Positions 12,775 to 62,116 of a stretch of DNA of 64,000 nt are shown piece after piece; position 1 is the stretch's first letter; each line of letters begins with the position of its first letter. Source of the stretch: Mytilus edulis (taxonomy: Eukaryota); NCBI RefSeq assembly GCF_963676685.1, contig NC_092352.1, positions 11,532,001 to 11,596,000 of the forward strand, in the 5' to 3' direction. Under the pieces are notes generated by a model. The model did no database searches. It was not told the origin of the DNA and saw nothing but the letters and a program-made list of their open reading frames with translations. The position numbers and the translations under genes were made by a program.

Positions 12775-14334
12775 CCATAATTCCAACAGGAAACCAACAA
12801 AGAAAGTCTGTTTAAACAATCAAAAATAATCTTCTAGCCAGTGTTATATCTTGTTTTGTCCTCTTCGCCATTATTCTATTACTACTTTTAGCTACATTGT
12901 AAATTGACAATTGACACCAAGCTATAACAGTAAACGCAATACTGTTGTAAAACACGAAAATAGCTGTTGAATATTCCCATCCGCTGACTTTCTGTCGGGA
13001 AAATGGTAAAGCCAAACAAACTGCTGTTCTTGAATAAAACATATTAGAAAAATATGTCGTATCTAAAATCGGTACCACAGCTATGATGACTACGAATAAC
13101 CAGCAAACCAAAGTCGAGACCTTTGCTATTTTGTATGTTATCCGCCATCCGCCAAATGGAAACTTTACCATTAGATAGCAATCAAAAGTCGTTAACATGA
13201 CAAAACAAACAGATGCCTCACATGAAATGGCTGCAATGATACCTGCAAGTTTACAAACAAAACTATCTCGCCATTCACGGTCATGTAAAATATAGTTTCC
13301 AGAGTAGTACATATCAGCTACAGCAATAATCCCGAGGTACACACCCATCAGCAGGTCTGAAACACCAAGATTCATTATGAATAACCAATTTGCCTTAAAT
13401 AGTAGCGTTTGTTCGTTGATGATACGATAAATTATAACTCCAATATTTCCAATCAAAGCATTTATAGCAATAGTCCAAAGGCACACACGTAATACATCAT
13501 TTCTCATCAAATTGCTACACGAGGAAAATTCGTCCATTTTTGGGAAACAGTTCTCTGCAGAAACAGATTCTGGTTTTAAACAACAAAATATATAGGAATC
13601 AGTTTTCATTTTTGTTAAATGAGAAAGACGGGAAAATATATCAGGAGAAACCTTTGTCACATCGTTTTGTGTCAAATCAATTGTTAGAAGAGATACAAGT
13701 CCATCAAATACATTTTCCTCTACAGTTGTTAGTCCATTCCCTGTTATGTTAAACGTTTCAAGGTTTTCTAAACCAATAAATGTCCCATTAAAAAGTGTTT
13801 TTATTCTAGTTCCAGAAAGTTCCAAATCTTTAACATTAGGTAATGCCATGAACGCATTTGGTTTGATAAATCCCAGCATCAGATTGCCTTTTAAGTTTAA
13901 GGTTACTAGTTTAGTGAGACCATAGAACGTGTAACTTTGTAGAACCTTTAATTTGTTGCTACTCAAATCTAAATGAAGGAGGTTCATTAATTGTTCAAAT
14001 GAGTATGGCATAATCTTGTCAATGCTGCAGTTGAATAGTTTGAAATCAGCCAGGTATGTATATGCAGGAACAATCAAATTATTATTCGGAAACAATGAGC
14101 TGCTCAAATCTAATTTTCTAGCTTCAACAGACAAATCCTTGAAAATTTTTTCTACTTCTTTTTGATGACATATAAATACAAAACCTTCACATGAACATCC
14201 AATAGGACATGTGACATCACAACCAACTTCATCATCCCCATGAGGACATTGTCTTATGTTGTCACAAACCTCATCAAATAACAAACAAGTGGTTGACTGT
14301 TGACATCTATATAATCCAGGACAGGTCAAATTTC
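12775..14334 (-). CDS. GPCR exon 16: LDLa, LRRNT, LRRs, hinge, TM1-TM6 (contains premature TAA)
   Basis: CPGLYRC..CDNIRQCPHGDDEVGC, CPIGCSC, LxxLxLxxN repeats, CC..C.P..DEFSSC, GN (TM1), NLGVSDLLMGVYL (TM2), RRLFLIV*TDFLCWFP. AG acceptor at 14336-14335, GT donor at 12774-12773. Confidence 0.93.
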
Positions 14335-14524
14335 CTGAAAGCAATCATATATGAAAACCTCATCAAATTTGTATGAACTATCCTCAATTAAAAGACAATA
14401 ATGATAAGTTGTGATAGAAAATTTTCAATTGAAAAAAACAAAACAAATGTCTAAATCTTAAGTTTCCATTGTCTTTAAAAAAAGTTGACATTTGAAGGTT
14501 TTGGCTCTGTTTATATCCTCTTAG

Positions 14525-16075
14525 CGAAAAGTAAAATTACAAAAATACTGAACTCTGAGGAAAATTCAAAAAGGAAAGTCACTAATCAAATGGCAAAATC
14601 AAAAGCGCAAACACATCAAACAAATGGATAACAACTGTCATATTCCTGACTTGGTACAGGCATTTTCTTATGTAGAAAATGGTGGATTGAACCTGGTTTT
14701 ATAGCTAGCTAAACCTCTCACTTGTATGACAGTCGCATCAAATTTTTTTATACTGACAACGATGCGTGAACAAAACAAACAGACACAATAGGTAAAAATG
14801 TCAAAAATAGGGGTACAGCGAACAACATTGTGTTATCATCTTAATCACTATAAAAACAAACAAATGTAACAAAGAAGCACAAAAAGGCATACATCAAATT
14901 AAACATCCTCATTTTGCTTTTTTACTATACGATTTTATTTATCTATGTAAAATCCACCCATAAAGGATTGAAATGTTTTAAGTACTGGCGTAGAATCGCG
15001 CGTTTTACGTCACACAGGTAGATATTAAATAATTTTGTCGTTCAAAGTATGACGGGATACATAAGTACAGAGTCACGTCAAATGGATATCACAAAAAACA
15101 GACTTAACAGTAAAAGCAATATTAATGAGAAAAATAATTTTGTCGTTCAAAGTATGACGAAATGGATATCACAAAAAGCAGACTTAACAGTAAAAGTAAT
15201 ATTAATAAAGACAAATAAAGAAATACTATAACACGTTATTAAGATGATAAACAACGTCAGTACGCAGAATCTATACTTCAAGTCATCGTGTATTATTTGT
15301 GAAGTTGTGAAGGTCTTGGTTTCTTCCGATGAACTTTTAGAAAAAGGACGAGACGTTCTTTGACATACCCCTGGTTCATCAACTTTCTGTTCAGACACTG
15401 TTGACGTTTTACAAATTCTGAGTAGGAGCTGCAAGCTCTTGAATACCGAATAAGTTGGGAAATGTATATCCCATATGCAGGTGAAGTTGGTATATTGCTA
15501 CTAAGGTGGGGGAAATTGATAATTTCAAAATTAAAATCGTCTCGTTTGTCATAGATTCTGGTACTGAGATGACTGTGTATGTCAAATTCGATGTATAAGT
15601 CTAAAAATGAGGCGGAGGAAGCCGTGTCTGTTGTTTTTTTAATTTCTAGTTCTGGGGGATATATTAATGGAACCCAATCAGAAAAGTTCGGATTTTTAAT
15701 GGAAAGAACATCATCAATACATCTGAAAGTGAAATTAAATAACCTGGCTTCTTTGATCTTCTTGTTTTTGACAAGTGTCTGAAGGAACTCCGATTCATAT
15801 GAAAATAAGAAGAGGTCGGCAAGAAGAGGCGCACAGTTCGTTCCCATAGGAATGCCGACAATTTGTTGAAAAAGTCTACCTCTAAATTCAACAAATACGT
15901 TGTCAATAAGAAACTCAAGCATACTGATCACTTGTTCCTCTGTGTAGCATGTTTTACCCTTTTGTTAACTATTAACAAAATATGCTTTATGGTATCCCAA
16001 AGCAATAAATTTATAGCGTATGCTACCATTTTTATGTTGAAAAGCATTGTGGATTATTTCTTTTAGACGATTTTT
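14525..16075 (-). mobile_element. Penelope-like (Naiad-type) retroelement, 5'-truncated: RT C-terminus plus 3' UTR
   Basis: QQIVGIPMGTNCAPLLADLFL, FRCIDD, FLDL, YDKRDDF, YGIYISQLIRY. No GIY-YIG after the RT. Confidence 0.88.
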
Positions 16076-16614: not shown

Positions 16615-16731
16615 CACAAAATAATTCATCATCGCCATGGGTGCAATGTTTTCTGCCGTCACAAAGTAAGCTTGATGAAATGCAGTGACCCTCTTTGCAT
16701 TTGAAGAAGCCTGGCTGGCAAATCTCTTTTT
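16615..16731 (-). CDS. GPCR exon 15: LDLa repeat
   Basis: [39 protein letters not shown]; 117 nt, phase 1-1, AG/GT. Confidence 0.9.
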
Positions 16732-17423: not shown

Positions 17424-20400
17424 TCACTGCTGATTCCATAAAGAAACACAAATACTGCTGTGATCACTATAATATGTCTTAACAACTTTCATATGCTTCA
17501 CTATTAGATTGTCTGTGTAAAAATGGTCAAGAATTGACCCACTAATATGTGTTGGTACTGAGACATGTTGTTTTAAGCCGGAATTCAAAAAATAATTCAT
17601 GTAGAACTGATGACTGATCTAAACTAATGTCTTGGTTGATATCTCCTGTGATGATAGAGTTATCGAAAATGTATGGATGTGTTTCAATTAAATCACGAAA
17701 TTTGTCTCGACAATGCATGCTTGGATTTTGTTGATTTGGAGAATTTTAATTTGCTGTAATATAAAGATATCCATTAGAAGTATTCACTTTGATTACAGCG
17801 ATTTGAAGGAAATTGTCCTTGTAAAGAAGCACTTGCTCACTGTAAATTGATTGTTTTACCATAATAGCTGTGCCACCTGCTGTCCTACAAGTTCTGTTGC
17901 CAGGTTTGTCGACTCTGTAAATGTTATGTGTTTTGAAATGTTCTAAAGATGTTGTTTTAATATTGTCAGTTAACCATGTTTCTGTAATTACAATCACATC
18001 ACTATTTGAATGACAAGGATCTAACAGAATATCTTTCTCATGTAGTAAAAAGGAACGAGCATTGATAACAGATATCAAAAACTCTTTTTGGTCTTCCTTA
18101 ATGAAGGTGAAAAATTGATCAGTGACACAATTTCCCCTAAGCCGTTCCATTTCTTTGAGAACAGACTTGTTTGCTTTAACTTTTTTTTCCTCAAAATATT
18201 CTAGATATAATTCAGTTAATGTTTTTGCTCTACTCAACGCCACATATGCTTGCCCATCAAAGAATGTGTTTTGAAATGATACAACAATTTTGTTTACAGT
18301 TATCCCTTGCACCTTGTGTATGGTACAGGCTCATGCTAATTTGATAGGGAATTGCAGACGGGACATCTTTAGCCCTTTGTTTTTTGATGATAATGTGAAT
18401 GAAATTTCACTCCGTGCAATAGGTGTGGCTGAACTAAATTGTTTGTTTTCAACTGGGAATCGAGATACCTTTCTTGCATTAGATCCTGTATTTGCATCAT
18501 CAAACTGTACCAACAAAGCAACTACATTTGAAATTGTTGAGGAATTGTTTATACGCTTTATTATCATTTTAATGGTTCCTTGAGCACCATTTACAAGTCC
18601 ATCTGATACATCAACATTTCTTGTAAGCATGATTTTTGCTCCAACTGCTACTGTAATTTCATCAGGCAAACCACCAGTAAATCTAGGATCATTTTTTGGA
18701 TTTATTTTCTTTAAGTCATGAGGCTTTTTATCAATTGCTTTTAATATTTCCATGGTTTCCTTTGAAGTTGATAACATTTTGGTATTATGCTGGTCCACCT
18801 TTGCATTAGTGGAATATACATGTAAACAGTCTATGGGATGTTTTAATGGATGAATTGTTGTATCTGTACATTTCAATACTTCTATATCTTCACTTGTGAA
18901 AGTAGCATTTCTAATTCTATTTAACAATTCAGCAAACTTGAAATCATCCTTTTGCCTCATTATCTCAGTGAGCTCATATAGTGAGAAATCATCCCATAAA
19001 TTACCATACATACGACTTAATGGGTCTTTAGATGGTTTAAATACAAACTGCTGCATAACTGGTGGTAATTGAAAAAGATCTCCAAAATGCCAGAACTGAA
19101 ATACCCCCAAATGGTTCATTAATTCCAGTTATTTCACAAAGCCGGTAATGTATTTGTAGAAGCAGCTCTGATCCTACCATGGATATCTCATCGATGATAA
19201 GAAGTCTAATTTTGCTTGCTTTTGACCTTAATGCATTTCTTTTGTCATCTGATAATTTTAGATATGTTTTAGTTTGTCCTAAAGGTAGCAAGAAGGCAGA
19301 ATGTAATGTCACACCTGAAATGTTGTGAGCAGCTGTACCTGTTGGGGCTGTTAATAGGACATGAACATCATCAGGATTGTCTCCAATAGTTTGTAGCTTG
19401 CGTAAAGCCATCTGATAAATGCAAGAAATTAAATGAGACTTTCCTGTTCCTGCTCCACCAGAAATGAACATACGCAGTGGGTCACTCTTCTTCTTTGAGA
19501 TGTCCATATGTGCTAGGTTCTCACAACACTGCAATACTATTTGGAGAATGTCGCTTTGTTTGGCATTGAGGCTGCGAATTCTTTCACGATAATCCTCATC
19601 AGTCAAAAATAGTGGTCTAAGTTCGACTGTCATGCTAACAGGAACAGTGTTACATATGACAGGTTTTTCATTTTGTTTTCGTTTATCTTCTGTGTTTAAA
19701 AAAGAAAAGTTTTCATCTTCAGTAACCCCTTCTACTTGTTCAGCATTTTCCTGTTCTACTTGTGGTGCAATAGTATCCCAACTATGCTCAGGTGGACCAA
19801 CAGATTCAAATTGATCTAATGCTTCTTCAAAAATGTCTGCATGATGTTCTAAATGTTGTCTATTGCTGTCAATAATGTCAAACACATTATCATAGAGCTC
19901 TTCATACATATCAAACTTGTTTAGATCTTCATGTTCTTTTCTCCAAGGCATGTACAGTAATAATTGTGAATAACAATAATCCTCTTTTTCTTTCAATTCT
20001 GAGTATTTATGATATTTAAGAATTGCTGGTTTTCTTGTCTTTCGCATTTGTCCTAGTGTATTTTTAAGAGTAATAGTACTTGATGCTGTATTGTCTTCAG
20101 CTGATTCAATACCATTCTCACAACTTTCACTTTTTTTTACTGTTATCATATGTATACCAGATGGAAAATTTGGCCAAACAGAGATTTTCTAACTTTGTTG
20201 ATCTTGCTGCATAGCGATCCAAAATACTTGTCTGATAAACATCTTCATCTTCGTCTTCCTTGTCTTTGACCGATGACATTGGTTTAAGTAAACATATACG
20301 CCTTTCTGGTCTGTCTGCTGGAACATATACAGTGGAAAAGTTACTCTTGAATAATGGAAAACTCAGCAAACGATAAACTGCTTCCTGCGCACTAACCTCT

Positions 20401-23400
20401 CTTGCATTCAAAAATGCAGAAGCATATTTTTCATTGATGACTTAAAATCTAAAGTGTTTGCTTCATTAGACACTGCTTGAAGTATCTGGCTCATCTCTCG
20501 TTCATCTTTGGTGATATAAGCAACCATGTATGCAATGCAAGCATATGGATCCAAACAGTACTGAACATCCAAATTTGCTTCCCATGCACGTAGTAAATGT
20601 TTATTGTATGAGTTTATTTGAATCTCAGTCGGGTTTCTTTTGTAAATAATAAGTTTTCCACGCTTTGATAGTTCTAGTGCTGATTTGTATTCTTGAGGTG
20701 AAATGTTTGAATCCTTTAACAGATGATTCAATGATGTATAGTCTTTTGTCTCTAATTTTTCAATTACTGAGTATTTAATTAAAGCTGCATTTTCCAGTGC
20801 TAATTTTGCCTCATTAGGGTTAAGAAAATCTGATGGTTGAGCAATTATTGTTTCTGATGAAGGTGGTTTTGGGTAGTTGAACCTGCAGTGTGTGCCTTTC
20901 TTTTTACAAGTTGCTGTATGGTTGTGGAACTGTACAGATTTTACCAAATTATGAAATTCTGGATGTCTTTTTGCAGATGGTATTGAGCATGTTATATATT
21001 TGTCTATGAATTTGACAATATCTTTTACAGGAGTATCTGGATTTGGTGCATTATCAACCCAAAGCACGCAGTGTGCATGAGGGGATCCTCTTTGCCGGAA
21101 CTCTATTCTATAAGAATAATAAGTAATGTTTCCCAAAGGTTCAGCATTACTAAGTATAACATCCCTAAAAAGACACTGTAATATATGGTCAAAATGCCTA
21201 GCTGCTGTCACAGGATTTGATCTCAAAATTCCACATTTTTCCTCCCATGTGAGTTTACCTACTTCTTCTTTGGACATTGACTTTCCCTGTTGCCTTGTTA
21301 TAACTATTATTGTATCTGTCCATTTCATGTCAGCTGCAGATAAAGTGACAAAGAAGGTGAATATACCAAGTTGTTTCACTGCTGCTAGCAACTTATACAT
21401 TGCTTTTTGCCAATATGGTGGAGTACCTCTTATTATTTGCAGAAATCTATATGCCTTGTCTTTCCTTATTAGACTTTGGAGGCGTACAGGATCTTTCAAC
21501 ATACCAACATTGACAGCCTCTCCTGATGAATGACTGTAAGCCTTTCTCACTGCTATTGATATTGAGTCCATAATTTGTTTATATTCTGTTACGTATTGGG
21601 CAAAAAAGAGATACTCAATGTTTTTAGCAAACACTCCAGTTTTATTCAGTATCCTTGCATTAAAGTACTTTTTAGGTGTAAGGTGTACATTTCTGTGCCG
21701 GTCAAAGCCAAATGGACCTGTAGGGAAAAGCTGTGGAAAAGATAATTCTTCACACCCTTCATCCAACATAATATTTACTGGTGATTTTCCTTCACCTGGT
21801 GCAAGAGTTATTATATTTTCTGTGTCCAAATGAGGATCTGTTCGTTGAATGCATGTATCATATAAGACATTTTTTTTGTTCAGAAGTATCAGGTTCATCT
21901 CCATCTTCTGATTCTTCAGATTCTTCATCCTGTGTATCATCTTTGTGGTCATTGGAATCATCATTATTAGTTATGTTATTATCATCCTTAGTAATAGCAT
22001 TCCAAAGTTCCTTATCTTCACGTGCACTTGTATTTTCCAAGTCTGAGGTTTCCATAATATTAAAATAATGAGGATTATTTTTTTTAAACCATTGTAGACA
22101 TTCAAGTATTACTTTGGGCCTTATGTTTTGAAAAAAATGCATGTCCCTTGTAACATTTCTTTCGTTTAATTTTGATAGGTATAATTCCAGCACTGATGGG
22201 AGTTTGTGGAAGAGATGTGCATACTTGTTGTACATTAACTGGCACATTAACCACTGCTCCTTTTATTCCTGTTTGTCATCGTCTTGGTAAGGCTAACAAC
22301 TTCATGAATGGATAACGTGTAGATAGTATGCGTGCTTCAAGTGGTGTCAAATCCTGAATTATTTTGGGTACATCTGGCAACATCATGTTATTAGCTTCTG
22401 CTTGTGGTGGCATTTTGTTATTTTGGATATGTTTCATACAGGTCTTGCACATGTATTCAATATTATCTCTGGATTGACTCGCAGTCCTACATTTCTCCAG
22501 TATGTCTTTAAACTTGAATTTATCATTTTTTAGTCTGACAACTGTTGATTTGTATAACATTCTGTTACATACTGTACAAATATACTCCAGTGATTCACTA
22601 ATATGTTTCCTAAATAATCTCAGTTTAAAATCAATGTCAAGTGATCTTTTCTGCCTTAATATGCTCATTCGATTTCTTTTAAACTTCAACTTATCTTGAA
22701 GTCTATCATAAGATAATGTTTTTCCTTCAAAGCTTTTACGTTTTGCCTCCTTTGTATTTCGAATTTTTCTGTTGTTTTGGGGAATTTCTTGTCTAAACAT
22801 TTTCATTCTTTTCATAGCAGCCTTTTTACCTAGTGTTTTGTCATCTTGAGGAAGTTCTTGTCTAAACAATCTCTCTCTGTCTGAATCAGCTCTTTTGACT
22901 CGTTCTTTGTCATCTTAAGGAAGTTCTTGTCTAAACAATTTCTTTCTGTCTGAATCAGCTCTTTTGACTCGTTCTTTGTCATCTTGAGGAAGTTCTTGTC
23001 TAAAAATCTTCATTCTTTTCACTGCAGCCTTTTTAGCTAGTTCTATGTCATCTTGAGAAAGTTCTTGTCTAAACAATTTCTTTCTGTCTGAATCAGCTCT
23101 TTTGACTCGTTCTTTGTCATCTTGAGGAAGTTCTTGTCTAAAAATCTTCATTCTCTTCACAGCAGCTTTTTTAGCTAGTTCTTTGTAATCTTGAGAATGT
23201 TTATCTCTAAACAATCTCTTTCTGTTTAAATCAGATCTTTTAACTAGTTCTTTGACATCTTCAGGAAGCTTATCTTTAAACAATTTTTTTCTGTTTAAAT
23301 TAGCTTTTTCGGCTAGTTCTTTTTCATGTCTGGAAAACTGTTCTCTATTAAATCTCCTTCTTTCTTTGTCGTTTTGTCTTGTTATGTGTTGCTTTCGTTG

Positions 23401-24787
23401 AGATATAGTCTTTCTATTAATTTGTTTTCTCACAGATTCCTTATTCATAATACATTGTGTTTTTTCACTTGGATTATTTGAGTTTTTATTTGAAGCCCAC
23501 TTGATTTGTCTTTCTAATTCCTTTGAAAGTAATTCAATCTCAGGACAATTAGTCACAGAATTATTTTTTAACAGATTTTGAAGATCTTGGGTTGATGTAA
23601 CAACTTCAAAATGGTTTTGATTGGTATGTTTGAGATATATAGCATTATATTTATTTCTAATATTTGCTTGTGACTGTGATGCTGTGTATTTTAACCACTT
23701 CCATGTTTGCTCAGTGAAAGAGTACACATATATATCTGTTTGTAAACAACTTGCCATAGCAGTAATTTCTACTTCTGTAGCCCACACTGACAGACTTGCC
23801 ATATTTGATTTTTGCAAATATTGTCTCACAGTTATTCTGGATGGTAGAACAGTTGTTAATTCTTGTGGTATTGTCATCATATATGCAGTTAAATACTTTC
23901 TTACAGCTTCGTGATAATTTTCACTACCAGTCATTATAAAAGACACTGCCCTAAAAAGCAGTTTCCATCACCAACTAAAGGATGTATATTTGTAGGGACT
24001 TGAATTAAACTATCTGAAGAATCAAAATGGTGAACAAATAATACAGGTAACTTAAATTTGATTGTCTGAACTGCCTGCCATTTCATATCAATTGGATTGA
24101 ATGTAAAATCCTGTATCTGTTGTGTTCCTAAATAAATTAGTTCATCATTTGATGCAGCCTGTGTTGACACATTTTGACAATTGTTCTTAGTAATGTTCCT
24201 TCCTGGAACATCATCAAATCGTTTGTCTTTAACTTCATCAACAACTTTAGATTCTTCCTTAAAGACCTTTTGTAATTCTACAAACTGGGCATTAGTATCA
24301 CTCAAAGTATCTTCCTTGTTCTTTTCTTTATTTTCAACGTTTTGAATTTTACTCTCTGTAGGGTTTTTTTCGACACTACTTTTACAAAAGTTTGTTTTTA
24401 TTAATTGAGTTTTTTTTTCTTTAGATACTAGTTTGATTCTTGATTTTGTCACATCGTCAACAACCTTGATATTGTCTAAATGCTGATTAAGTTTTTGAAC
24501 AGAACTAATACTGTAGAGCAGTGCTTACAATAAGTACACTTATGATTGCTCAAAGTTCTTTTTGATTTGAAATCCTTATTGCAGTAATCACATGTGAAAT
24601 CTGTTGCACAGTTATGGGATTTAAGCTTCTGTGAAGACGTGAACACTTTATCACAAAAAGTACAAATTATACATTGATGTTTTTTCAGGAATGATTTTCT
24701 ATTGTATGTTTTCCCACATGTGAAACACTTGTAGATGTTGTCATTATATAGATGAGCTCCTTTATTTCCTAGTAGATGATCAGTCAT
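17424..24787 (-). pseudogene. Helentron polyprotein, about 2450 codons, broken by stops and frameshifts: C2H2-like zinc fingers, OTU protease, 23-aa repeats, HUH Rep, Pif1 helicase, EEP endonuclease
   Basis: OTU: GDGNCF, WATEVEI, HFEVV. Rep: EFRQRGSPHAH, YMVAYITK. Pif1: GGAGTGKS, LIIDEISMV, GDLFQLPPV, LTEIMRQ, QFPIKLA*ACTIHKVQG, YVALSR. EEP: INARS, TETWL, GDIN, LDH, SDH. Terminal TGA at 17424-17426. Confidence 0.92.
22720..23390 (-). repeat. 69-bp (23-aa) coding tandem repeat, STPR-like
   Basis: ELPQDDKERVKRADSDRKKLFRQ alternates with ELSQDDIELAKKAAVKRMKIFRQ; GTCTAAA recurs every 69 nt. Confidence 0.9.
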
Positions 24788-26225
24788 GCTGCTTTTTCTG
24801 AAAATAAAATATTAAAATATAGCTTTTTAAAAGCACATGATTGTTAAATTGTATGTTAATGATGATTTCAGTTATACACTTGATAAAGATCCCCTTTATC
24901 ATTGTTTATCAATAGTGTAAATGGTTCCTTTTAAACATATAGAGATTAATTCAAATCAATTAATTTAATGTTGTATGAATTTAGAATAAAATATGCGTAT
25001 TATCCAGATGAAATTATCAATATAAGACAATTTCAGTTAAAATAGTTGTGTAGTGTTATTTTACAATAATATGGTTGAATGTAAAACTAACAATTTTTAA
25101 ATTTTATTGTTCTGACTGATCTTTTCTGGATTCATATCATTGAAGTTACATAAAGAACTTTTTAATAAAAAAATAAAAATATGTCTTGAACTGATCATGA
25201 TATTATCAATAACAGAGGTTACAAGTTGAACTTTATAAACTGGGAAAAAGGATGAAAAAGTTTAATGCATAACTGTTAAATAATTACAAGTTATAAACTG
25301 GGCAACCTTTGTAGGAAATACAGGACAAATTTAACAACTTTGTAAATATCTTGAAGCCACATCAAGTTAATATTTCGATTTTCATCTGTCATAAGAAATA
25401 GGTCAGTATTTATATTTAATTGTTTTTTTAATTTTTCAGAGAGTTACAAAGCCAAGTCATGTCTGTTAATCCTATCATTGGCTGAAGTAAATAAAAAAAT
25501 GAAACATATTAACTGAAACAAATTGAAGTGGAATAGGGAAAAAAGTCTGCAGATTCATGAGTCCTATATAGGGTTTAACTTGATATGACCTTTTGATAAG
25601 TTGAATTTTATAATTAGTCTAATTTCCACTAATAATTGATAGAGGTTTAAAGCAGTAATACCAAAACAAAACATCAATTTTCTGGTCAATTATAAAGCTT
25701 TTTGTTTGCTTTTGAGGTGTCAAAGGTACTTCAAAATGAAACTTTAATTTCAAAGAACCAACTCTGGCATCAATTTTTGTTTTGAAAAAATATCATATTA
25801 CTGCTGCAAACAAACAAACAAATAATTATATTACTTACTTACTTATGCTCAAAGATAACTGTAATAATAACAATTCCATTCTACAATTTTTAATATAAAT
25901 AGTAGTTTATAATACGTACACAATATATATTCAATAAAAAGTTTTAAAAACTTACAAAAACATCACAGCCATTATTGTACTCAGTAATTCCAAGATCTTC
26001 AAAACTGCACGCACACACAATGTGTTGAACAGAGAACTGTTCTCTTTAGTTGCAAGTTGATGCAAACTATAAACTAGAGCCTGTGTAGCATACCTGTTAT
26101 CTTTTTAAATAAAATTGATACATTATACAATAGAACAACAATAATAATTCTAATGCTTTATTCCTAACAATTATGGTTTCCAGGTTGTGAATTATAACTT
26201 CATGATAAACTACCTCGTGACTCAC

Positions 26226-28577: not shown

Positions 28578-28756
28578 CTGATTTACATACAACAGGTCCA
28601 ACTTTCACATCATAAAACCCCTCGTCACTGTAAGATTTATCTGGAACACCGTAACGATGAAACGGAAGTCTATCGGGATTTGAAATGACTATATTATCAG
28701 TAAACACTCTATTGACATCTGATTGACTCCAGTCCATGCCTCCAATACAATGGCAA
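28578..28756 (-). CDS. GPCR exon 13: end of Caspr/fibrinogen-like module
   Basis: CHCIGG...DNIVISNPDRLPF...KVGPVVC; 179 nt, phase 2-1, AG/GT. Confidence 0.75.
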
Positions 28757-31132: not shown

Positions 31133-31433
31133 CTGTTATTGCATGCCTCAACAACGATGACAATAGATTCCGTATACCTTTTAGAGTTATCAGATATAAC
31201 GTCGTGGTAATAGCATGTTAATTTCACATTTTGTGAACACTGGTGGTTGTCCTTCTTCATTACACTCTTTATCATATCCTCAGGAAAACTATATACTTTT
31301 TCAAGTACAGTTTCTAGTTTATCAGAACTACCATAAAAGCTAGAGAAATAGTCAACATCATTATAATAAAAGAATGTTGAGACCAGTAAAGCATTGCCTT
31401 GATCATTGAATTCACAGTATACCAAATATGTAT
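31133..31433 (-). CDS. GPCR exon 12: Caspr/fibrinogen-like module
   Basis: DTYLVYCEF...Y...IKSV..CSQNVKLTC. AG acceptor. The donor is either AG|GCAAGT (exon end 31133) or AG|GTATAC (end 31178); both are phase 2. Confidence 0.75.
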
Positions 31434-31549
31434 CTGAAATAAACAAAAATTGAAATGACATCCTCACGTATTGTTACTTGTTTGAATTATTTTCAAACTT
31501 TACTTCAGAACGGTGTTGATTCATCCTTTTACGCAAAGTTTGTCGACTT

Positions 31550-35040: not shown

Positions 35041-35247
35041 CTTCTGTTCCTTGATCTATGGAATACATTCCATTTAATCTCGCTCCAATTACCCACCATT
35101 GTTCACACGATGTCTGTTTGACACTATCAGCGCACTCATATTCGTCTTCTTTGTATCCTCCAGGACAGTCAGATATAGTATCACATACACGATCTTTACT
35201 GATACATGCTTTATCATAACATTGATAGCTTTTTGAACTACAAGTTT
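35041..35247 (-). CDS. GPCR exon 11: LDLa plus start of fibrinogen-like module (absent from the ORF track)
   Basis: ETCSSKSYQCYDKACISKDRVCDTISDCPGGYKEDEYEC-ADSVKQTSCEQWWVIGARLNGMYSIDQGTE; 207 nt, phase 1-1. Confidence 0.9.
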
Positions 35248-40059: not shown

Positions 40060-40173
40060 GACAGTCTTGTTCGTCCGATCCATCATTGCAGTGATTTAAG
40101 TGGTCACAGTAGAAAGTAAAATGTATACATGAACCATCTGCACATTGATACTGGGAACTTGAACATTCTGTAC
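40060..40173 (-). CDS. GPCR exon 9: LDLa repeat (absent from the ORF track)
   Basis: GTECSSSQYQCADGSCIHFTFYCDHLNHCNDGSDEQDC; 114 nt, phase 1-1. Confidence 0.92.
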
Positions 40174-40949: not shown

Positions 40950-41066
40950 CACAATGTTTTTCGTCAGAATTGTTGAAACAATCACTGTAAGAATCACACG
41001 CTGCTAACTGTGATATAATCTCACCATTTCCACATGTAAACATAGAATGATTGAAAGAGGATGAAC
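40950..41066 (-). CDS. GPCR exon 8: four-cysteine LDLa repeat
   Basis: MFTCGNGEIISQLAACDSYSDCFNNSDEKHC; 117 nt, phase 1-1. Confidence 0.9.
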
Positions 41067-41859
41067 CTGAAATACCCAGTACTCTAATTTCGATATCGGT
41101 CACTGAAATTAGAAATTGTTTATCTCTTGATAAAATTTCGGGCACGATATACAGTAATAATAAATCCAAAGGATAAAGTTACATGACACTCAATCATTTA
41201 TATGTCAAACTATACCTTTCCTTCATTATGTAACACAAAAACCTGTCTAGTGTAATGTCGATAAAATTCCAATAAGACACACACAAAAAAAAAAGAGAGA
41301 AACTGACATATTAAACCATTTATATTCAAATTATGCATCTATGAAAAAAGTCTAGATAACATTATACTAAAACAATCAATGTAATATCAAGGATGATATT
41401 TTTGGCTCTCAATAATGACGATGTCAGTATAGGGGTAAATTCAGTAAATAAATAGACGTCATCAGGGACCGCCCATTTAGGGGAGAGCTTTCTGTACAAA
41501 ACTGAAGTCATGTGCTCTTCTGATTGGTAGATAATGTTTGTTATAAATATTTTTTGGTAGATGGATCAAAACTAGAGTTGAAAAAAAAATTAAAAATAAA
41601 TGCTGAATGCACTAATTTTTTTCCTACAGGGTTGAAAAGTAATGGGGTCAGTATAGGAATTCAGTGCGAATCTACATTGTTTGTAAACAAGGTAATGTGA
41701 ATGCCCAAAAATGCCGCATGACCTTATGTTTTTATGGTTGCAAAAGATAGGGATACATTTGTACTTTCATGAATAATATATGAAAGTTTCTAATTTCTAA
41801 AGGTAAATCAGGTATACATTTATTTCCATACATAGATTAGCATTAAAGTTAATGGGAGA

Positions 41860-47464: not shown

Positions 47465-47543
47465 CAGGCTGTATAAGTTAATGGTTCACCACTCAACCAC
47501 TGGAAATCTGAAAACTTGTAACCTTTATTCTGTTTTACCAAAC
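47465..47543 (-). CDS. GPCR exon 6: C-type lectin middle part (absent from the ORF track)
   Basis: GLVKQNKGYKFSDFQWLSGEPLTYTAW; 79 nt, phase 1-2, AG/GT; bridges the phases of exons 5 and 7. Confidence 0.9.
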
Positions 47544-48907
47544 CTGATAAAAAAAATTATAAAATTCAAAGAAACATATGAAAATATTACAAAATGTATG
47601 GAAAATCTCGAAATGTGTTCTGTTCGATCGAAGAAATTTTATGTTTTACATTATATTTTTTTACGTGCGGGTATAATCACGAAAGAGGCAGACATGCTGA
47701 TGTTCAATAGAAATAAGTAGGCGTAAGGTACCAAACAGTCATTCAAAATTGAATTATTGAATGGAAACTGACAACGCCGTGATAACGTAAAAAACCCAAC
47801 AACACCAGAAAACACTAAATAGAAAATAAAAGACTGCGCAAATCGAACGCCAAAAAAATTTGGGGTGATCTCAGTTGCTTCAGGAGGTTTTCCAAGATAT
47901 ACCCGTCGTGTTGCTCGTGGTAAGTACATATTCGATGACAACTCTCTTTCACAATGTTACAATCGAGGAAAGGTGAACGGGTTTGTTCTCCTCTAATTGC
48001 TGTTTTGAGATATAAGCCATATCAAATTAACTTCACTGTAAACAATTTATAGATATTGTAGATCAGATTTGGCTTTTATTCTTGGGAAAACTTATAAATA
48101 GATAATAGTTTAGGAAAAGTTCCCAAAAGTGATGGTAATATCTCCCTTGGTCTTTTTGGTGAGAACACTTATATTCTCCTTTTTGTGTCTTTTGTCTTAA
48201 TGTTAGTTGGGTTGTGTGCTTCGTACAAATCTAATCAGTCAAGCCATTTCCAACTGGTTTAACAGTTTGTTCTAACGTTGGTGGGGTTCGTGTTGCTCAT
48301 TCTTTTGTTTTCTAATGTTTTGTTATATTAACTGTTGTTTGTCTGTTTTTTTTTTTGCCACAGCGTTGTCAGTATATTTTCGACTTATGAGTTTGAATCT
48401 CACTTTTGCATCTTTCGCCCCTCTTCGTGCTGTTAATTCACTGTTCCAAGTTGGAAGGTTTAGCGTATATAAACAAGTTTTAACCAGCAACATTCTTAAT
48501 GTTCCAATCCCAAGCCTGTGATTCAGTGGTTGTGATTGGTTGCTTTCTGTCATATTTGTATTTCGTTTATTTTTTGTCAATGTTTATGTTCCATGTCAGG
48601 ACCCGGTAATTCATTGATTATTGTTAGTCGCTGATGTTGTTCGTTTATTGTTTCTACATAAATTTGGCATTTGTGTTTCTTGTAGTATTTCGTCATGTCG
48701 GGTTCTCCTATAGATACCTGTATGGGTTTTGATCCGAATATAAGGCTACACGGTGTCCTAAAGTTGCAAACATTCATTTTAGTGAGAGTACGGTGGACAG
48801 TTGATTCATTTGGTGACCAAGCCACATCTCCTTATAAAAAATATATTGTTCTTAAAGAATTAAAAAGCCATGATGCGTATCTATTATTCAGGCCAACATA
48901 AACATGC

Positions 48908-49111
48908 CTATATAAACTTGGTCAGCACTTCCCGCTTCAGATATTGTAAACAACAATTGATGAACGAATTTCATTTCCTCTTCCGAATTGACACTGACAA
49001 GATGACCACCTTCTCTCACACATGCCATTTCTGCCTTTTGCTGATTCGTATGATTGCTGTAAAACAGCTTATAACAACTTGTTCTTAAGTTAGCCCACGT
49101 TGCAGCACAAT
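48908..49111 (-). CDS. GPCR exon 5: C-type lectin N-terminal part, GC donor
   Basis: CAATW....SCYKLF...AEMAC...GGHLVSVNSEEE...VYIG; 204 nt; donor reads AG|GCATGT. Confidence 0.88.
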
Positions 49112-50378
49112 CTAACAATAAAAAAAAACAATTATAAGAATGAGTACCGTTTGAAAGGGCAAAAAGAGTTATCACAAAAAGTAAAACAACAAAAATACCA
49201 ATCTCAGAGGAAAATTCAAAACGGAAAGTTCGTTAAGAATTAACAACATCAAAAGCTCAAACACATCAAACGAATGGAAAATAACTGTCATACTTCTGAC
49301 TTGCTACATACATTTCCTTATGTAGAAAATGGTGAATTAAACCTGGTTTTAAAGCTAGCTAAGCCTCTCACTCTAATAGCTACCTGTATGGGTTCGTATA
49401 TAGTGACTAATTTGGAAGATGAAACTACTTGCAAGCATTATAAAAAAAGTAATTTACCATCCACTTTTTTATGTTAAAGATTACGATTCAATAAAGATAA
49501 GTTTGTTGATTCTTAATGTCATGTTATTATAATACAATTAATGCGATACATAATCATTTACTGATCCAGAAATGATTTTTTTCTTTCTTTCCCACCATTA
49601 CATTCATCAATATTGATTCAGAGTGTGAATTGTTGATTTTCTTGTTAGGATGTTTGTTTTCTTTAAGGAATTACTGTATAAATTATTTTGAGTATAACAC
49701 CTTTTCGTGTTTTTTTTTCTTTTGTGATTTGTTCATGTTGCAGCGTGAATTCGAATAAAAAATATAATGGCAAACGTTAAAATTTTAATATATCAGCAGG
49801 CATAGTGCTTTGGGCATCTTTTCAGTATTTTAAGTACTATTCTATGGTATACACCATTGTTTTTTTGTTTTCCGTCGTAGAAAAAGTAAAAAAAAACCAA
49901 GAACAATCATTTACTTTTTTGAAATATATCTCTTTTAACGCGCATATTTGATCTTGCAACCTATCGAAGCAAAATTGCATGTTTAAAAAACTTGTTCACA
50001 TCGTTAACATACGTATGCGCCTGTCCAAATCTGAAGTTAGTTTTGACTGGTTGTTGCTGTCTAAGTAATTGTCAAAATAAAGATTTGGTGTCGAAGTCAA
50101 ATATTTGGTTTTCTCTGAAGATGACACAAAAGATTTTGACTACTCTGACGATCAAGACCTTGTCATGCAGCTTTGTGCTGTTCCACCAATGGTGAACTTG
50201 TAACATTTTTAAATATCTAAAACTCTTTTATAGAGATAGACATGTATCAACTTATTAACTTTCATAAAATGTGTTGTAGACGCGAGCTTTAAAAAAAAAG
50301 TAATTGACACGAAAATAAAGGCGTACAAATGGACAAAGAGTTGGGCTAACGAACGTACGAATATTTTATAAATCTTAC

Positions 50379-50786
50379 CAGATTCATTAGAAATGGTTTC
50401 AATGACAGTATCTTTTATCGTATATAATCCTAAAAATCCCCTTCCGGTCAAGGAATTTCCAACACGGAATTCTACATCCATCATATGCCAACTAGAAAGT
50501 AATCTTATATGTGGCATTGTAACCTTGGTGAATCGTCCAAAAGATGCAGATCGTTCTCCCCGGAGATCAAAATCAAACACTTCCACAAACGAGTCAACCA
50601 ACGACCAGATGTTCACATCAAGTTCTATGAACTGAAGTTCGATATATTGTCCATACTGACCTCTAATTTTCCACATATTTGTATCCGAAGCTGAATATAA
50701 GGATGGATATAGATAAGATGCTATATATGCCTTTTTCGCAGTGCATTTTGCATACTTTTTGGCGTTCACTTCGCACCCAGGATAAT
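50379..50786 (-). CDS. GPCR exon 4: CUB domain
   Basis: YIASYLYPSLY...WKI...GQYIELQF..LDV...FVEVFD...GRF...SSWHMMDVEF....GRGFLGLY; 408 nt, phase 1-1. Confidence 0.88.
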
Positions 50787-53515
50787 CTGAAATTGTATGG
50801 AATGAATTGGTAACATAATTATTTTTATTTTGCTATGTAGAGAAAAACATGGATGGATATATGACAAACATAAGAATTTCGTTAACTGCCATATTTGTTA
50901 CTCTACATTCACACAAGGATTTCTTTCAATATTCTATTTTCAACTGACTCTGTTTGCATATAATTAAGCAATATCCGTAAGTTCGAACATAATGTGTTCG
51001 GCAAGAAAGAAGGCTCCTTTTTTTCCGACGATTGACGACAATCTCATAAAATGCAATATAATTATGATCTTATCAACAGTCTAAATATATCTAACGTGTT
51101 TGACTATTATGTTCTATATATTATACATATACATATACAGTATAATTGGTTTTAATCATTTTTTTTTGTATCATTCATTTATCAACGATGTAAAAGCAAA
51201 AATATTTTATTTTACTTCATCAGCATTTTGAACATAAAGAAACATAGAAAATCACACAAATTCTTTCCTCGTTTGCCATGTAAAAGATATAGATAAATTT
51301 CTTAACCAGATTGCAGAGTATTTATTTTTCTTTACCGTCACAGTTCCTACTAAATTATACTCGAAAGATATGAAAACAAACATGTTAGTGCGACCTCCGG
51401 ATATGATGAGGAAATACTAATATTTTGACAATTCGCACGATAAGTTATCTTTATTCGTTAATTGTTTCTCTTTTTCAAAAAAATAAGAATGTCATTCGAC
51501 CCTTAAAATCATGAGATAGTTTTAAAACACTTGATTGTATATGTCTTAGTGTTTTTTGCTGGAACTTTTGTCCTGATTATTTATCATGCAAATCTGTACA
51601 TACATCTCACTCTTATCGGACATCTTATGCTAATCGTTAAACCAACACATTTTGGTCGACTTCTTGTCCATATCATGATTATTGTGAAAAGTTGTAAATT
51701 ATAATAAAACGCTTTCTTGCTTCCGAAGTTAGTATTGGTAAGATTTGTAAGATATAATTTAATTCTAGACAGTGCCATAATTATTATCATTATAGTTATC
51801 ATTCAATCGCTGTGAAAGTACGAGCATACGAATTAGAGGTCTGAAATATGAATCGGAGGAATCGGTGATTGTTTTGGATGACCAGTACAATCTAGCAACC
51901 ACAATATTTAAAAAAAAAATTCATATCAAGAATCTATTTTATCTCTATTGATAAATAATTTCAATATTCTTTAATAGGTCGACCTGTTGATGAAAATTAT
52001 TAGGTCACTTTCAGATTGACATCAATATAGAATGTTTGACTGTCCCTCTGGTATCTTTCGCCTCTCTTTTGAAGCATAATTATCAATATGAGTTTAAATT
52101 TTAGTTTGTAATAGATAAACAGTTGACAATTCATAATGTTATGACAAAGAATAAATCATCATTTAGTAAGACTGGGGCTACTATGATTGAGCACAATATT
52201 CTCAGTTTGACGTCATATGTTTTGTCTTCATACAAATCGTTGAAATACATGCAACGACATTTCACAAAACGAAACGACAAATGAATATCATCGTACTCGA
52301 AAAATATACTATGATAAAAGTAAGCCATAATAAATTAATCGTCTTGGTCTTTTTGATAATCATAATAAAACTGATTAACAGAGATGATAATTTATTAATA
52401 TTATTTTCTTTTGAAATACCGACATCAATTACGGCGATTCCTGAAAAAAGCGGCGATCAGGATGTCTGAATCAGAGATGGTTAATCTGTAATCGTAATCG
52501 ATTGTAATTCATATAATTTTCCCAAGTATTCGACAGTAATCTGTAATCGTCAAAATCTACCTTTTGTTGAACCAGATTTTCTCACAAATTTTAATGTATT
52601 AAAGCTTTTTTTAACCAATGACTTACAAAGCTAGAAAATATTTTAATTCCTTCATTTATGAGGTAGAATAGGAAAATAGCCAAAGTTAAGTTCAGAACAC
52701 ATCATGTATAAATTGCTTAATTGTATTAATTGATTATTCCTTTTAGATTTATGAGTTTGACTGTCCCTCTGGTATCTTTCGCCTCTCTTTTGAAGCATAA
52801 TTATCAATATGAGTTTGAATTTTAGTTTGTAATAGATAAACAGTTGACAATTCATAATGTTATGACAAAGAATTAAGAAAGGATACACAGTCATCTTAAC
52901 AATGAATTTATGTATTGAAATTCCCGATCAGGAATAGGTGCATGTACTTGTATCTCATTTTGACACAAAAAAGTGTTTATAAATTTGCATACAAAATAAA
53001 GAATTCTCAACTACCTTCTTGGTTTCATTGATCAGATGACCAAAGACTTATAATGAATTTCATGCAGACTTTGTTTTGATTTCAATTATGTCAAACTTTA
53101 GTATCATATTTTTGGTGTATTGCCCTAGGATATACTTTTTACTCCATTGGCATCTGAATCACCTGCAATTAAGGATAAATCCAAACAAAAAGATGAATCT
53201 ATGCATTTAATTTATTTGAAGTAACCATCTATGAAATTAGCTAGACAAATTACTCACCATTTGTTTTCTTTTTTAGAAGAAACGTCAAACAATTTTAAAG
53301 TTATGAACATTATTATCTAATAGAGAAAATCAATGGTGGTATTACACCTAATCAATTACATGAAAATGAAAATTTTGACTATTTTCTAAGGAGATAGTTT
53401 TTAATTTTAAATATGGCCGGAGTCTTTCAGAGACAACATTTAGAATTTCATTCCGTTTTATTGGTGGTAAGAAACAACAATAACTTCACAACAAATATCA
53501 AATATCAAATATTAC

Positions 53516-53732
53516 CTATTGATTCAATTTTTAGTTGGTACATTACGTTCTCTGACATAATGTACCTAAAACACGATGTGAAATGTATTTTGATGTTATC
53601 TCCAGTTGCCATAAACGACGCATATCTGTATCTTTTTTGGTTGTCTCTGGTAATTTGTATATCCTGCCCTGCTCCGATGTCTATAGTTAATGTGTCTTTA
53701 CAAGAACTTGGATTTATATAAGAATGGCCACT
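53516..53732 (-). CDS. GPCR exon 3: second half of a divergent CUB domain (absent from the ORF track)
   Basis: SGHSYINPSSCKDTLTI...FMATGDNIKIHFTSC...YQLKIESI; 217 nt, phase 0-1. Confidence 0.8.
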
Positions 53733-54215
53733 CTGTTAAAAAAAACCCATTTAATTCATAAAGACTGATATGTTTTTTTTTATTACATGAACTGCTTTGG
53801 TTTTAGATTCTTCGTCCTTTTACAACAACATTACGGAATGTAAGAAGGCTCAGGATATTTGCAAAAATGGCATGGTGCTACAATTTACATGTTTAGTACA
53901 GACGAAGATGATAGATTACACACACATTTTTAAAATATTTACAAAAAAATGAAAGGCTTGTAATAATTCTATAAGGGTAAATAAGCCATCAATCATTTTT
54001 CAAGAAAATGTAGTGTCTAAAAATATCAACAATCAACGTTCAATCTATCTAGACGTGATGATGCAGTTACTAAATTAAATTATATAAATGTCAAAGAATG
54101 TAACTTTAACACGCATTGGCACTCATTATATAAAACCTATATATAAAAAGATCGACGAAATTAAATTTGAAAAATATAGTAAACTTTTTGTATCCAGTCA
54201 ACAAATACAACTTAC

Positions 54216-54430
54216 ATTTTTCAGTTGCTCTTCAGTTTCGGTTTCGGCAAATGATGCATAAATAATGGTCAATTTCAAGTACATTCCAGGAAAGCTCTGC
54301 ACTGTTTTATATTCATTTATTCCCATTGGATAATTGGATGGAAACATTGGAGAGTATATATAATCAATATGTCCTTGTATAGAGGGAAACATAGCCCATT
54401 CAGTCAACTGAAACTTTGGTCTGTAAAATT
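54216..54430 (-). CDS. GPCR exon 2: first half of a divergent CUB domain
   Basis: YIYSPMFPSNYP....TVQSFPGMYLKLTI; 215 nt, phase 1-0. Confidence 0.82.
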
Positions 54431-56262
54431 CTATTGAAAAAAAAGTATAATTGTTAAAAAGTAAAACATTTTCTACAATGTGCATAGCAAATATGTTATA
54501 AAGTAATACAGAACATATGGATGTGCATTTGAAATCACACAACAAAAATTGAACTCTCCATTAAAAATGAATAAATTTGCCTGATCATGATCTCCAATGA
54601 CCTTGCGTAAAAGAAATCATGGGTAGTATTTAATATAACTTTGCCTCTAAACAAAATTTCAAAGGTAAAAATGTGTAGGCTATCCAGCCATGAATCACCT
54701 TGTGTGTAGTTTTTAGGAGATGCAGTACTAAAAATCGATTCAGAACTTACCAAAGCAGCTGAGTTAATCCATGGTTTTTGGGCAGGCCATGATTGAGGGG
54801 GAGGGGAGGGGTCATGATTCTTAATTATTAAGAATATTTGGGGTGTTCTAAAGACTTTATTTGATTTTTCGTCCTTTTTATTTTAGTAATGGAGTTTTCT
54901 GTCTTTTGACTTATCACTTAGAATGTTCCCTTGATATTCTTGTTCATTTTTATTCCTGAACATGTAAATCGGTATTTGACATCCTCCTGTTGATGTGTGA
55001 CAACCACTCTTCAAGACAGACAAACAAATTTCGTTCTTGAAAATGCATCTATTTGAGGACATATTTCAATGTAAAATGTTTTTTTTTTGTCTTTAATTTC
55101 GAAAAATTTCTAGTATACGCGTTCACCAAATATTTTCAGATAGCATTTAGCTTTCTTGAACTTTCGAACATTTGCCTTTATGTTAATGGCTCCATATGTA
55201 CTTTGCGAAATTTTGAAAGGCCTATATTATAATATCAAAACAGCTAAGATGATGAATACAACAGCCACGTCATATTTGCATTTATACCACAAGGAAACCG
55301 TGTTCACAGCAATAAAAGCTATTGTGTGATTGCATTTATTGAAAATTGGAGATTACTCAGATATTTTTGCTGAAATTCAACGGACTTTATTAAAAAGAGA
55401 TTTTCTTTATAAATTTTTTTAACACTAATTATTCAGTCGTTTGCCCATGTTATTCTACCGTTTATTGTTAAACTACATTTACAATTGAAAAAACCTAGTG
55501 CTGTGTCACTTAAATCTTTCGCACACCAAAAGGTGTAATTGATAGCCCATTCTTAATTGTACTCATTTTCGCTTAATATAAAATTGAGAATGGAAACGGA
55601 AAATGTGTCGAAGAGACAACAACCCGACCAAAAAGAAAAAAACAAACTAAACTCAAAAACATATAAATGAACCACAATTAAAAAAAACCACACAAGACTA
55701 ACAAAGGCTAAAGGTTCCTGAATTGGGAAAAGTGTAAGAATGCGGTGGGGTTAAGCATGTTTAGTTAGATCTCAACACTCCCCCTATACCCTCTATTCAA
55801 TGTGGAATAAACAAATACACACCAATACGCACAGTAAAATTAAGTTTAAAAAAGTCCGAGTCCAATGTTAAAATAGGTAACAGAAGAAAGTAAGCAAAAT
55901 GTCAATAATCAACATATATTGATTAACGACTAAAAGCAGTTACTGACATGCTAGCTCCAGACCCCAATTAAACTGATCGTTAGGGGTTAAGTATCATGGC
56001 ATCATAATTATACAACAAAATCATATGAGTAAATCGATATTTAAAAAATTACATCTTTAATGACTCGACAGCAGTAAAGTAACCAAATTCCTTGTGAATA
56101 AGTCTGTTTAAAGGTTTGGTTACCTTTTGAGGTGAATAACGACATTTTTTCTTGGTATAGAATATTACCATAAAATATTAGATAGAAATAATTGAAGATA
56201 TAAGATGTCTGCACGTTGATTTATATTTACGAATGATGTCCTTTCACCGATGATATAATTTA

Positions 56263-61000: not shown

Positions 61001-61792
61001 AGAAATGATTTTTTTTTAAAATATGCAACCAATATACTTTGAAGACACTTTTTAAAAGTCATACACCCTTCAACATTAACCTAACATAATCAAAAGTGAT
61101 GAAAGATAAACTTGATACATTATAAAAAGAAATAGACTAAAAGCTCTCATGACAGTACGTCATTTTTAAGGAGAACATTGTTTTCTTTGTTACAAGATAA
61201 TCGAAAAGACTAATCGCAATATAGTATAATCCGTTTCTCTTTACTATTGTTATTTTGATGAAATGAATTTAGGTAAATTATAGTACATATTATAAATTCG
61301 ACTAAATCTAAACAAACTAAATGCCTTTTACACTTTTTAAAACCCATGTTTTCTTTATAAAAGTAATAAATATTAGAGTTTGTTGTTCTAATTGCGGTTT
61401 GGTATGATGTAATTTGCGTTTTCAAGGCATTTAAAAATGTGATCTACGAGTCTGCATTATCAGACCCCTTTTAAATTGTTCAGAAGCACCTGAGATCACG
61501 TGGGATTACCCCCGGTTTTTGGTGGTGTTCGCGTTGCTCAGTTTTTAGTATGTTGTTTGTCCTTTGAGCGTTTTTAGTTTTTTGTCATGGCATTATCCTT
61601 TCGTGTTTGACCTTTAAGTTTGAATATCCCTTTGGTAACTTTCGTCATTTTACATGTTTATGGCAGCAACAATATTTAGGTATTTGTTACACATAATTAT
61701 ATTTGTTTTTTACTTTAAATAAAGAATTATTATCATTATTGTTATTCCTGTAAGGGATGTTATTGATATGTGTAACCTTACTCGATCTTTAC

Positions 61793-62116
61793 CTGAGAAA
61801 CAAAGTCTCTCGGATGTTATTACATCTTCAAATTCATTTCTTTTCCAAAGATGTTTGTAGTGTCTATTGGTGCTACTTATATTGTAATAACAGCAGTGGT
61901 TTCTTGATTCATCATAAACACTTCCAATGTATCCGGCATCTTTAGACATTTGTTGACAATCTTTGATGTTCATATGTAAAAGACCATCTTGAAACCAAGA
62001 ACAAAATAAACCACCTGTTTCAATGTGTCGAATAGAAGCAAATCCCATGTCAATGCTTCTTTTAGGGTGACTGAAGAGACTCCCTCCTGATTCTTTGCAC
62101 CATATATCACGACAAG
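61793..62116 (-). CDS. GPCR exon 1 (most 5' exon found): Cys-rich module, possibly PAN/apple-like
   Basis: 324-nt open exon, phase 1-1, AG at 62118-62117 and GT at 61792-61791: CRDIWC...FCSW...DCQQM...YDESRNHCCYY...RLC. Linkage to exon 2 is inferred from strand and phase. Confidence 0.6.

Follow-up and report, generated by a model that had tools for sequence, protein, structure and literature searches.

Internal exons of a likely broken type C2 LGR allele in Mytilus edulis and a putative half-kinase tail in its receptor family

Lectin-bearing relatives of the Lymnaea receptor GRL101 have been described in Biomphalaria sudanica, in which the SudRes2 GRL101-like receptors combine a C-type lectin, LDLa modules, leucine-rich repeats (LRR) and a seven-transmembrane domain (7TM). 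According to the available text of PMC12297450, their genes form a tandem cluster, differ between haplotypes in copy number and truncation, and were proposed to act in immune recognition or pathogen sensing. Fusions of G-protein-coupled receptors (GPCR) to kinases have been placed in protists and early-branching animals (accessible parts of PMC5784254 and PMC12716839), and the accessible part of PMC10463195 adds a few tyrosine-kinase cases from metazoans (sea urchins and cats). Here, a stretch of 64 000 nucleotides (nt) from Mytilus edulis (NCBI RefSeq assembly GCF_963676685.1, contig NC_092352.1; G000:C9:11532001-11596000 in our numbering), called the window, was analysed together with 20 flanking stretches. 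It was read as containing 16 exons from the interior of a type C2 LRR-containing GPCR (LGR) gene, in an allele that is likely broken; the intact receptor would bind glycans or microbes and carry a non-catalytic half-kinase docking tail (probability about 0.55). Its ectodomain mosaic is a widespread design that has been published in part, and the less known feature of the receptor is the half-kinase tail.

The receptor gene and its modules

The 16 exons lie on the minus strand from 62116 to 12775, as a sequence-only reading of the window had claimed. Their lengths sum to 4,512 nt, and not to the 4476 nt given there.

61793..62116, minus strand: first exon in the window (exon 11 of about 30), PAN/apple-like domain; P0001 match, fold of the paralogue model
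54216..54430, minus strand: CUB1, first half; two-CUB model aligns to neuropilin, MASP and cubilin
53516..53732, minus strand: CUB1, second half; P0001 match, paralogue model
50379..50786, minus strand: CUB2; Pfam CUB E 8e-8, Z 16.7 on the paralogue model
48908..49111, minus strand: C-type lectin part 1, GC donor; Pfam Lectin_C E 9e-6
47465..47543, minus strand: C-type lectin part 2, 79 nt; 89% to P0004
45288..45463, minus strand: C-type lectin part 3, with QPD and WHD; homologue match
40950..41102, minus strand: LDLa 1; Pfam E 3.8e-8
40060..40173, minus strand: LDLa 2; 95% to P0001
37746..37862, minus strand: LDLa 3; Pfam E 3.4e-10
35041..35247, minus strand: LDLa 4 and start of the presumed fibrinogen/Caspr-like domain; Pfam E 1.3e-5, block conserved in relatives
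31133..31433, minus strand: fibrinogen/Caspr-like domain, middle, GC donor; P0001 match
28578..28756, minus strand: fibrinogen/Caspr-like domain, end; 97% to P0001
27584..27724, minus strand: GCRD cysteine module; conserved in 21 of 21 rows of alignment A1
16615..16731, minus strand: LDLa 5; Pfam E 2.5e-9
12775..14334, minus strand: LDLa 6, LRRs, hinge, TM1 to mid-TM6, DCY for DRY; Pfam LRR_8 E 1.7e-27, 7tm_1 E 7.9e-17
12812..12814, minus strand: premature TAA in TM6, where other Mytilus records have Leu; joined-frame translation

Fifteen of the segments were collinear with residues 506-1940 of P0001 (Mytilus edulis, 2,128 aa, named GRL101-like) at 88-100% identity, and the open reading frame (ORF) covering the LRRs and transmembrane helices (LRR-TM, 14344-12815) was 98% identical to it. 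The sixteenth, the 79-nt lectin exon (47543-47465), is skipped by the P0001 gene model and was matched to the paralogue P0004 (89%). Junctions were searched within the window and scored against six Mytilus homologues. An in-frame join with an AG acceptor was possible for all 15 introns; the donor is GT in 13 and GC in 2. The GC donors follow 48908 and 31133, both occur in the neighbouring tandem paralogue, and they probably account for the parts of the lectin and fibrinogen-like domains that are missing from P0001. The consistent splice phase that had been claimed was found at every junction, but the joined frame is closed by the TAA in TM6. Of the 15 introns, 12 are in phase 1, and the three that are not interrupt CUB1, the lectin and the fibrinogen-like domain. 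This agrees with the phase-1 module borders and exon shuffling put forward earlier, except that module shuffling is ancient and not particular to this locus.

The sequence-only reading had assembled the receptor from these 16 exons. The full gene has 30 exons (6,730 nt over ~110 kb) and extends past both window ends, with 10 exons upstream (beyond base 64000) and 4 downstream (before base 1). The full order is ApeC, F-type-lectin-like, F5/8C, PAN/apple, two CUB, C-type lectin and four LDLa, then fibrinogen-like, GCRD, two LDLa, LRR, 7TM and a cytoplasmic tail. The upstream exons encode the ApeC, the F-type-lectin-like/galactose-binding and the F5/8 type C domains (Pfam on relatives), and a likely signal peptide was seen by eye. 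The downstream exons encode the remainder of TM6, TM7 and a tail of 155 aa. A single mosaic LRR-GPCR had been proposed, and the gene is one, of the type C2/GRL101-like group; four N-terminal domains, the tail and the stop had been overlooked.

Within the window, the domain order claimed earlier was recovered by Pfam, homologue matches and the paralogue model. This AlphaFold model, built from the paralogue fragment P0117 (mean pLDDT 75.6), confirmed both CUB folds. For what had been called a 'Cys module', first in the claimed order, a PAN/apple domain is predicted from the model. Residues 106-185 were aligned to the HGF N-domain 3hms (Z 8.1, root-mean-square deviation (rmsd) 2.2, 73 aligned) and to the factor XI apple domain 7qox (Z 6.6). 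Overall, residues 103-187 resemble HGF-N, apple and MIC4 domains at middling scores (Z 6.5-8.6) and have no Pfam hit. The block after LDLa 4 had no Pfam hit either, in the window exons or in P0001. By its motifs, it is putatively fibrinogen/Caspr-like. The six LDLa-like repeats form two blocks; four window exons matched Pfam unaided and the others matched P0001. QPD, and WHD in place of WND, stand in the lectin exon as had been noted. Among 92 lectin-bearing receptors WHD was found in 70, QPD with WHD in 43 and WND in 2, and QPD/WHD-type motifs are conserved across phyla. Glycan or pathogen sensing is plausible from these modules, and the ApeC, F-type-lectin-like, F5/8C, PAN and C-type lectin domains may each contribute to binding.

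The architecture had been put forward as novel. Domain profiles cut from alignment A1 were run on 400 stored proteins, isoforms included. PAN-CUB-lectin-LDLa-fibrinogen-like-GCRD-7TM was found in this order in 21 proteins, the same order minus PAN in 44 and the CUB-lectin-LDLa-GCRD-7TM core in 77; lectin-LDLa-LRR is moreover published, so the novelty did not hold. Annotated proteins with the same order come from mussels, scallops, oysters, Solemya and abalone. The core was also seen in nemerteans, ticks, spiders, the centipede Strigamia, echinoderms and hemichordates, and mites are among the named sources as well. The full design was read on single Logan contigs of relatives, of 8.5 kb for P0011/P0123 (2,327 aa) and 7.4 kb for P0128 (2,377 aa); these 7.4-8.5-kb contigs were taken as transcripts.

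The window exon and P0001 both match Pfam LRR_8 and 7tm_1, and the hinge is strongly conserved in the alignment, which makes the gene an LGR. Six LDLa-like repeats N-terminal to the LRRs place it in type C, and multiple LDLa with a 7TM near that of GRL101 place it in a broad type C2 (GRL101-like) group. A quick 7TM tree of 48 rows was made; the trees held no RXFP/LGR3/LGR4 rows, and the C1/C2 border was not drawn on them. All 12 canonical GRL101 rows, with those of Lymnaea and Mytilus P0316, formed one clade (SH-aLRT 99), and the window gene fell in a separate 13-row mollusc clade (SH-aLRT 99) with a long Mytilus branch. The ectodomain also differs from the ~12 tandem LDLa, with no further modules, by which the available text of PMC8286064 defines GRL101. 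By its sequence, the window gene is thus placed as a type C2 LGR paralogue and not as a GRL101 orthologue.

A complete tandem paralogue lies directly upstream (G000:C9:11643250-11750254, L013-L024). It has both GC donors and the F5/8C exon, its TM6 is open and it reads DCY. A second, partial copy of an LDLa exon was observed in it at 11689599-11689528. Matches indicate at least nine loci on three contigs of this genome. Two near-identical paralogue loci ~68 kb apart were seen at G000:C12:37757601-37837171, with TM7 and tail exons repeated several times in each; this pair is either a recent duplication or an assembly duplication. Some database names label Mytilus pieces 'relaxin family peptide receptor 2'.

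The cytoplasmic tail and signalling

A tail profile, A2, was built from 14 tails. Against the PDB it matched 1,097 sequences at E <= 10, and the best 60 of the 1,097 were all protein kinases. The best E was 2.8e-7 (two stretches), and the best single stretch was PERK (6.2e-6). On 128 stored proteins, its sole match outside the receptor family was the sole protein with a precomputed kinase domain. A search of 1.84 billion representatives gave 145 new top hits; 28 were 7TM receptors, and an HRD-like motif was present in 64 of the remaining 117. The tail of P0108, which is 98-99% identical to two tail exons of this genome, was modelled by AlphaFold with a pLDDT of ~90 over residues 80-170. In VIA-align the top match was Rad53 (Z 11.1, rmsd 3.7, 110 aligned), and most of those ranked after it were kinases and pseudokinases. 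An Atlas search with the tail gave kinase-named clusters, all below 0.9, which serve as a lead only. In the reverse direction, 39 stored kinase segments were made into a kinase profile, which scored 17 of 18 selected tails above threshold over helices D and E and the catalytic loop region, in some up to the DFG position. The kinase origin of the tail is shown by the profile and by the fold of the P0108 model, and more weakly by Foldseek.

The Mytilus tail has no Gly loop, VAIK lysine strand, HRD, DFG or activation segment, and its chain ends in a helix-F-like segment. Even the long hemichordate form has degenerate HRD and DFG, and the tail does not qualify as an active protein kinase. By profile and model, the tail is best described as a catalytically stripped protein-kinase C-lobe of ~110 residues.

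A2 matched 29 of 46 CUB/lectin-bearing LGRs and 8 of 67 other LGRs. Two of these eight, P0323 and P0327, are canonical hemichordate GRL101 orthologues with a 393-aa tail that contains a near-complete dead kinase (below the curated Pfam cut-off for Pkinase, at E 2.3e-6 and 2.1e-5). Such a tail was found in none of the mollusc, insect and starfish GRL101 orthologues examined. The tail occurs in molluscs, ticks/chelicerates, a myriapod, a priapulid, nemerteans, echinoderms and hemichordates. The simplest reading of its history is one old fusion followed by many trimmings or losses; on a first tree six changes are needed, deep nodes are unresolved and three short rows were dropped, so that a single origin is unproven. 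Nematostella P0375, taken by eye alone for a kinase N-lobe, was rejected (E 0.28 against the kinase profile).

The ratio of non-synonymous to synonymous substitution (dN/dS) against the tandem paralogue was 0.32 for the ectodomain (1,158 codons), 0.24 for LRR-TM (558) and 0.34 for the tail (120). The lineage was therefore under purifying selection, and the lesions described below look recent.

The nearest groups of the window gene are GRL101 and RXFP/LGR3/4, and an IGF ligand has been proposed for GRL101 (PMC8286064 and PMC7357564, in their available text). The intact form could therefore be a peptide-hormone receptor holding an insulin/IGF/relaxin-like ligand on its LRR and LDLa, with adhesive or localising lectin, CUB and PAN modules and a tail that is a decaying relic. 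The strong conservation of the hinge would fit, as would the loss of the tail in most canonical GRL101s and some mosaic members. This is unlikely, because the gene lies outside the clade of GRL101 orthologues, in which Mytilus is already represented by P0316 (SH-aLRT 99), because it is tandemly amplified and not single-copy (at least nine loci), and because lectin motifs are kept across phyla and the tail is under purifying selection.

Arg3.50 was present in 187 of 204 aligned 7TM rows and replaced by Cys in 16, all from Mytilus (16 of 16 family rows). The DRY motif reads DCY or ECY in Mytilus, and DCY in the window copy, which thus lacks the class A arginine. This suggests weak G-protein coupling in Mytilus; species that keep Arg3.50 would presumably couple. 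A further reading makes the Mytilus family a scavenger, decoy or adhesion receptor uncoupled from G proteins, which internalises its ligand or scaffolds through the half-kinase tail. The Cys in every Mytilus row, the long Mytilus branch, the tail kept under selection and the presence of LDLa and CUB in endocytic receptors such as cubilin are in line with it. CWxP and NPxxY are, however, intact in other alleles and in the DNA past the TM6 stop, and coupling can in some cases survive the loss of Arg3.50, so that this reading was judged rather improbable.

For the glycan- or microbe-binding receptor preferred here, we infer the following steps beyond the anatomy. The distal lectin-type modules of the intact receptor would capture glycosylated or microbial material. 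On the model of other LGRs, the signal would pass along LDLa-LRR and the conserved hinge into the 7TM. The non-catalytic half-kinase tail would recruit partners as a protein-docking scaffold. A wider proposal is tentative, and probably goes too far: an ancient bilaterian class of glycan-sensing LGRs with a lectin chain, whose tail came from a whole kinase fused to a type C2 ancestor and, as a G-protein-independent scaffold, became the main output in mussels.

Damage in the window copy

The joined frame holds one stop, the TAA in TM6, so that this copy does not encode seven intact helices. Six Mytilus records (P0001, P0002, P0106, P0112, P0114 and P0115) are intact and have Leu at this position. 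A shared nonsense allele was considered and rejected: P0107, from another M. edulis contig, terminates three codons earlier, which therefore reflects a different change or an error. The exon that would encode the first half of F5/8C was searched for between its flanking exons, in the intron at G000:C9:11604007-11606296, and was not found; it is present at eight other places in the genome. Joining the natural splice sites around the gap leads to a stop at codon 450, and cryptic in-frame sites exist there. The two lesions lie ~60 kb apart in a region without N gap. Given the TAA and the absent upstream exon, this copy is probably a null allele, and loss of function would follow from truncation in TM6 or from transcript decay.

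Expression of this locus as one transcript is predicted from its sequence. The sequence-only reading had called for RNA reads to be mapped over its junctions. Four runs were mapped on 39900-54600, which contains seven of them; 6% and 18% of the two raw-read runs were covered. Signal there fell almost wholly on intronic repeats. None of the sequence records containing the LRR-TM exon was recorded as RNA.

Several observations weigh against a broken allele of a lectin receptor with a half-kinase tail. Among the alignments listed, none of the seven junctions was spanned by a spliced read or contig, and exon depth was near zero in four of four runs. Several Mytilus annotations break the receptor gene into pieces. 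Since WHD stands for the canonical WND, sugar binding is not assured. With the tail, Foldseek returned nothing at E <= 0.001 (best 4.4e-3, also kinases); P0108 alone had no Pfam hit, and Pfam misses the Mytilus tail. Seventeen of the 46 mosaic receptors have no tail match, from which the tail appears to be often lost or diverged, and one tail exon has a dN/dS of 0.60. Errors in the assembly could account for both the TM6 stop and the missing exon.

If so, the locus would be functional; alternatively, it would yield shorter products, such as a secreted ectodomain or an LRR-7TM-only transcript. The six intact Mytilus records and the cryptic in-frame sites, which could bypass the missing exon, speak for this, and two runs contain fractions of 0.66 and 0.50 of the words of the LRR-TM exon and almost nothing on the CUB/lectin exons. 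This uneven signal could be 3' bias. With two independent lesions ~60 kb apart, no N gap, and the missing exon present at eight other places and not here, a functional locus was considered very unlikely.

Surrounding repeats and comparison with known systems

The intron between GCRD and LDLa 5 is 10.9 kb here and 1.6 kb in the tandem paralogue. It contains a mobile element that is not receptor sequence:

17749..24811, minus strand: broken Helitron-type element with zf-C2H2, OTU protease, DUF6570, Rep and PIF1 helicase (Pfam)

This element ends with an endonuclease-like ORF (by eye) and contains a 69-bp coding tandem repeat (22777-23327). Among the best candidates in the genome no near-full-length copy was found, only short related pieces. 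The 19-kb intron that splits TM6 holds, on the plus strand, a Gag/protease ORF with DUF1759 and DUF1758 (722-2743), which we take to be a Bel/Pao-type retrotransposon. A retroelement fragment with a zf-RVT match lies at 11605-12399 (minus strand). Pieces resembling Penelope-type reverse transcriptase/GIY-YIG were seen by eye at 15296-15964 (minus), 62199-62660 (plus) and 63588-63998 (plus); they have no Pfam hit. A 20-bp tandem unit with a palindromic core is repeated 42 times at 5745-6584, with related units at 2749-3152 and 6591-6959. Further tandem arrays lie at 26225-26912 (179 bp, 3.8 copies) and 29648-30511 (196 bp, 4.4 copies).

A kinase remnant on a bilaterian LGR would extend GPCR-kinase fusions to Bilateria. 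The series from the near-whole dead kinase of hemichordate GRL101 to a lone C-lobe would indicate how far a pseudokinase can shrink and yet persist. The family is a candidate pattern-recognition GPCR, and related lectin-bearing genes lie in a snail schistosome-resistance region. In Mytilus, with copies that lack the DRY arginine, null alleles and tandem amplification, G-protein-independent signalling is directly testable. A literature search, subscription journals aside, found no LGR with a kinase-like tail and no ApeC-to-7TM layout in the text available; the sea-urchin entries of PMC10463195 might include relatives. No such tail is described in the accessible parts of PMC4079206, PMC11863921, PMC6267866, PMC2246102 and PMC13619432, and no mention of CUB or pseudokinase was found in that of PMC12297450.

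GRL101 of Lymnaea, the type C2 LGRs and arthropod LGR5 form the nearest clade in the 7TM tree and share with the window gene LDLa, LRRs, hinge and rhodopsin-type 7TM. GRL101 has ~12 LDLa, whereas the window gene has six in two blocks, and adds ApeC, F-type-lectin-like, F5/8C, PAN, two CUB, lectin and fibrinogen-like domains and the putative half-kinase tail. The relaxin receptors RXFP1/2 (type C1 LGRs) share the LDLa-LRR-7TM logic, but have one LDLa and a known peptide ligand (PMC11863921, available text), without the lectin modules of the Mytilus gene. The SudRes2 receptors, as far as they are described in the available text, are alike in lectin-LDLa-LRR-7TM, tandem cluster and truncated copies. 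The lectin is called unique to the SudRes2 genes there (PMC12297450), whereas here it was found across bilaterians, with many more modules. Like the Mytilus gene, the GPCR-TKL of oomycetes and amoebozoans, the GPCR-TKL/K of choanoflagellates and the GPCR-TK of sponges join a 7TM and a kinase-derived domain in one chain. Those fusions carry whole kinase domains, whereas the Mytilus gene is a bilaterian LGR with a C-lobe remnant stripped of its catalytic motifs.

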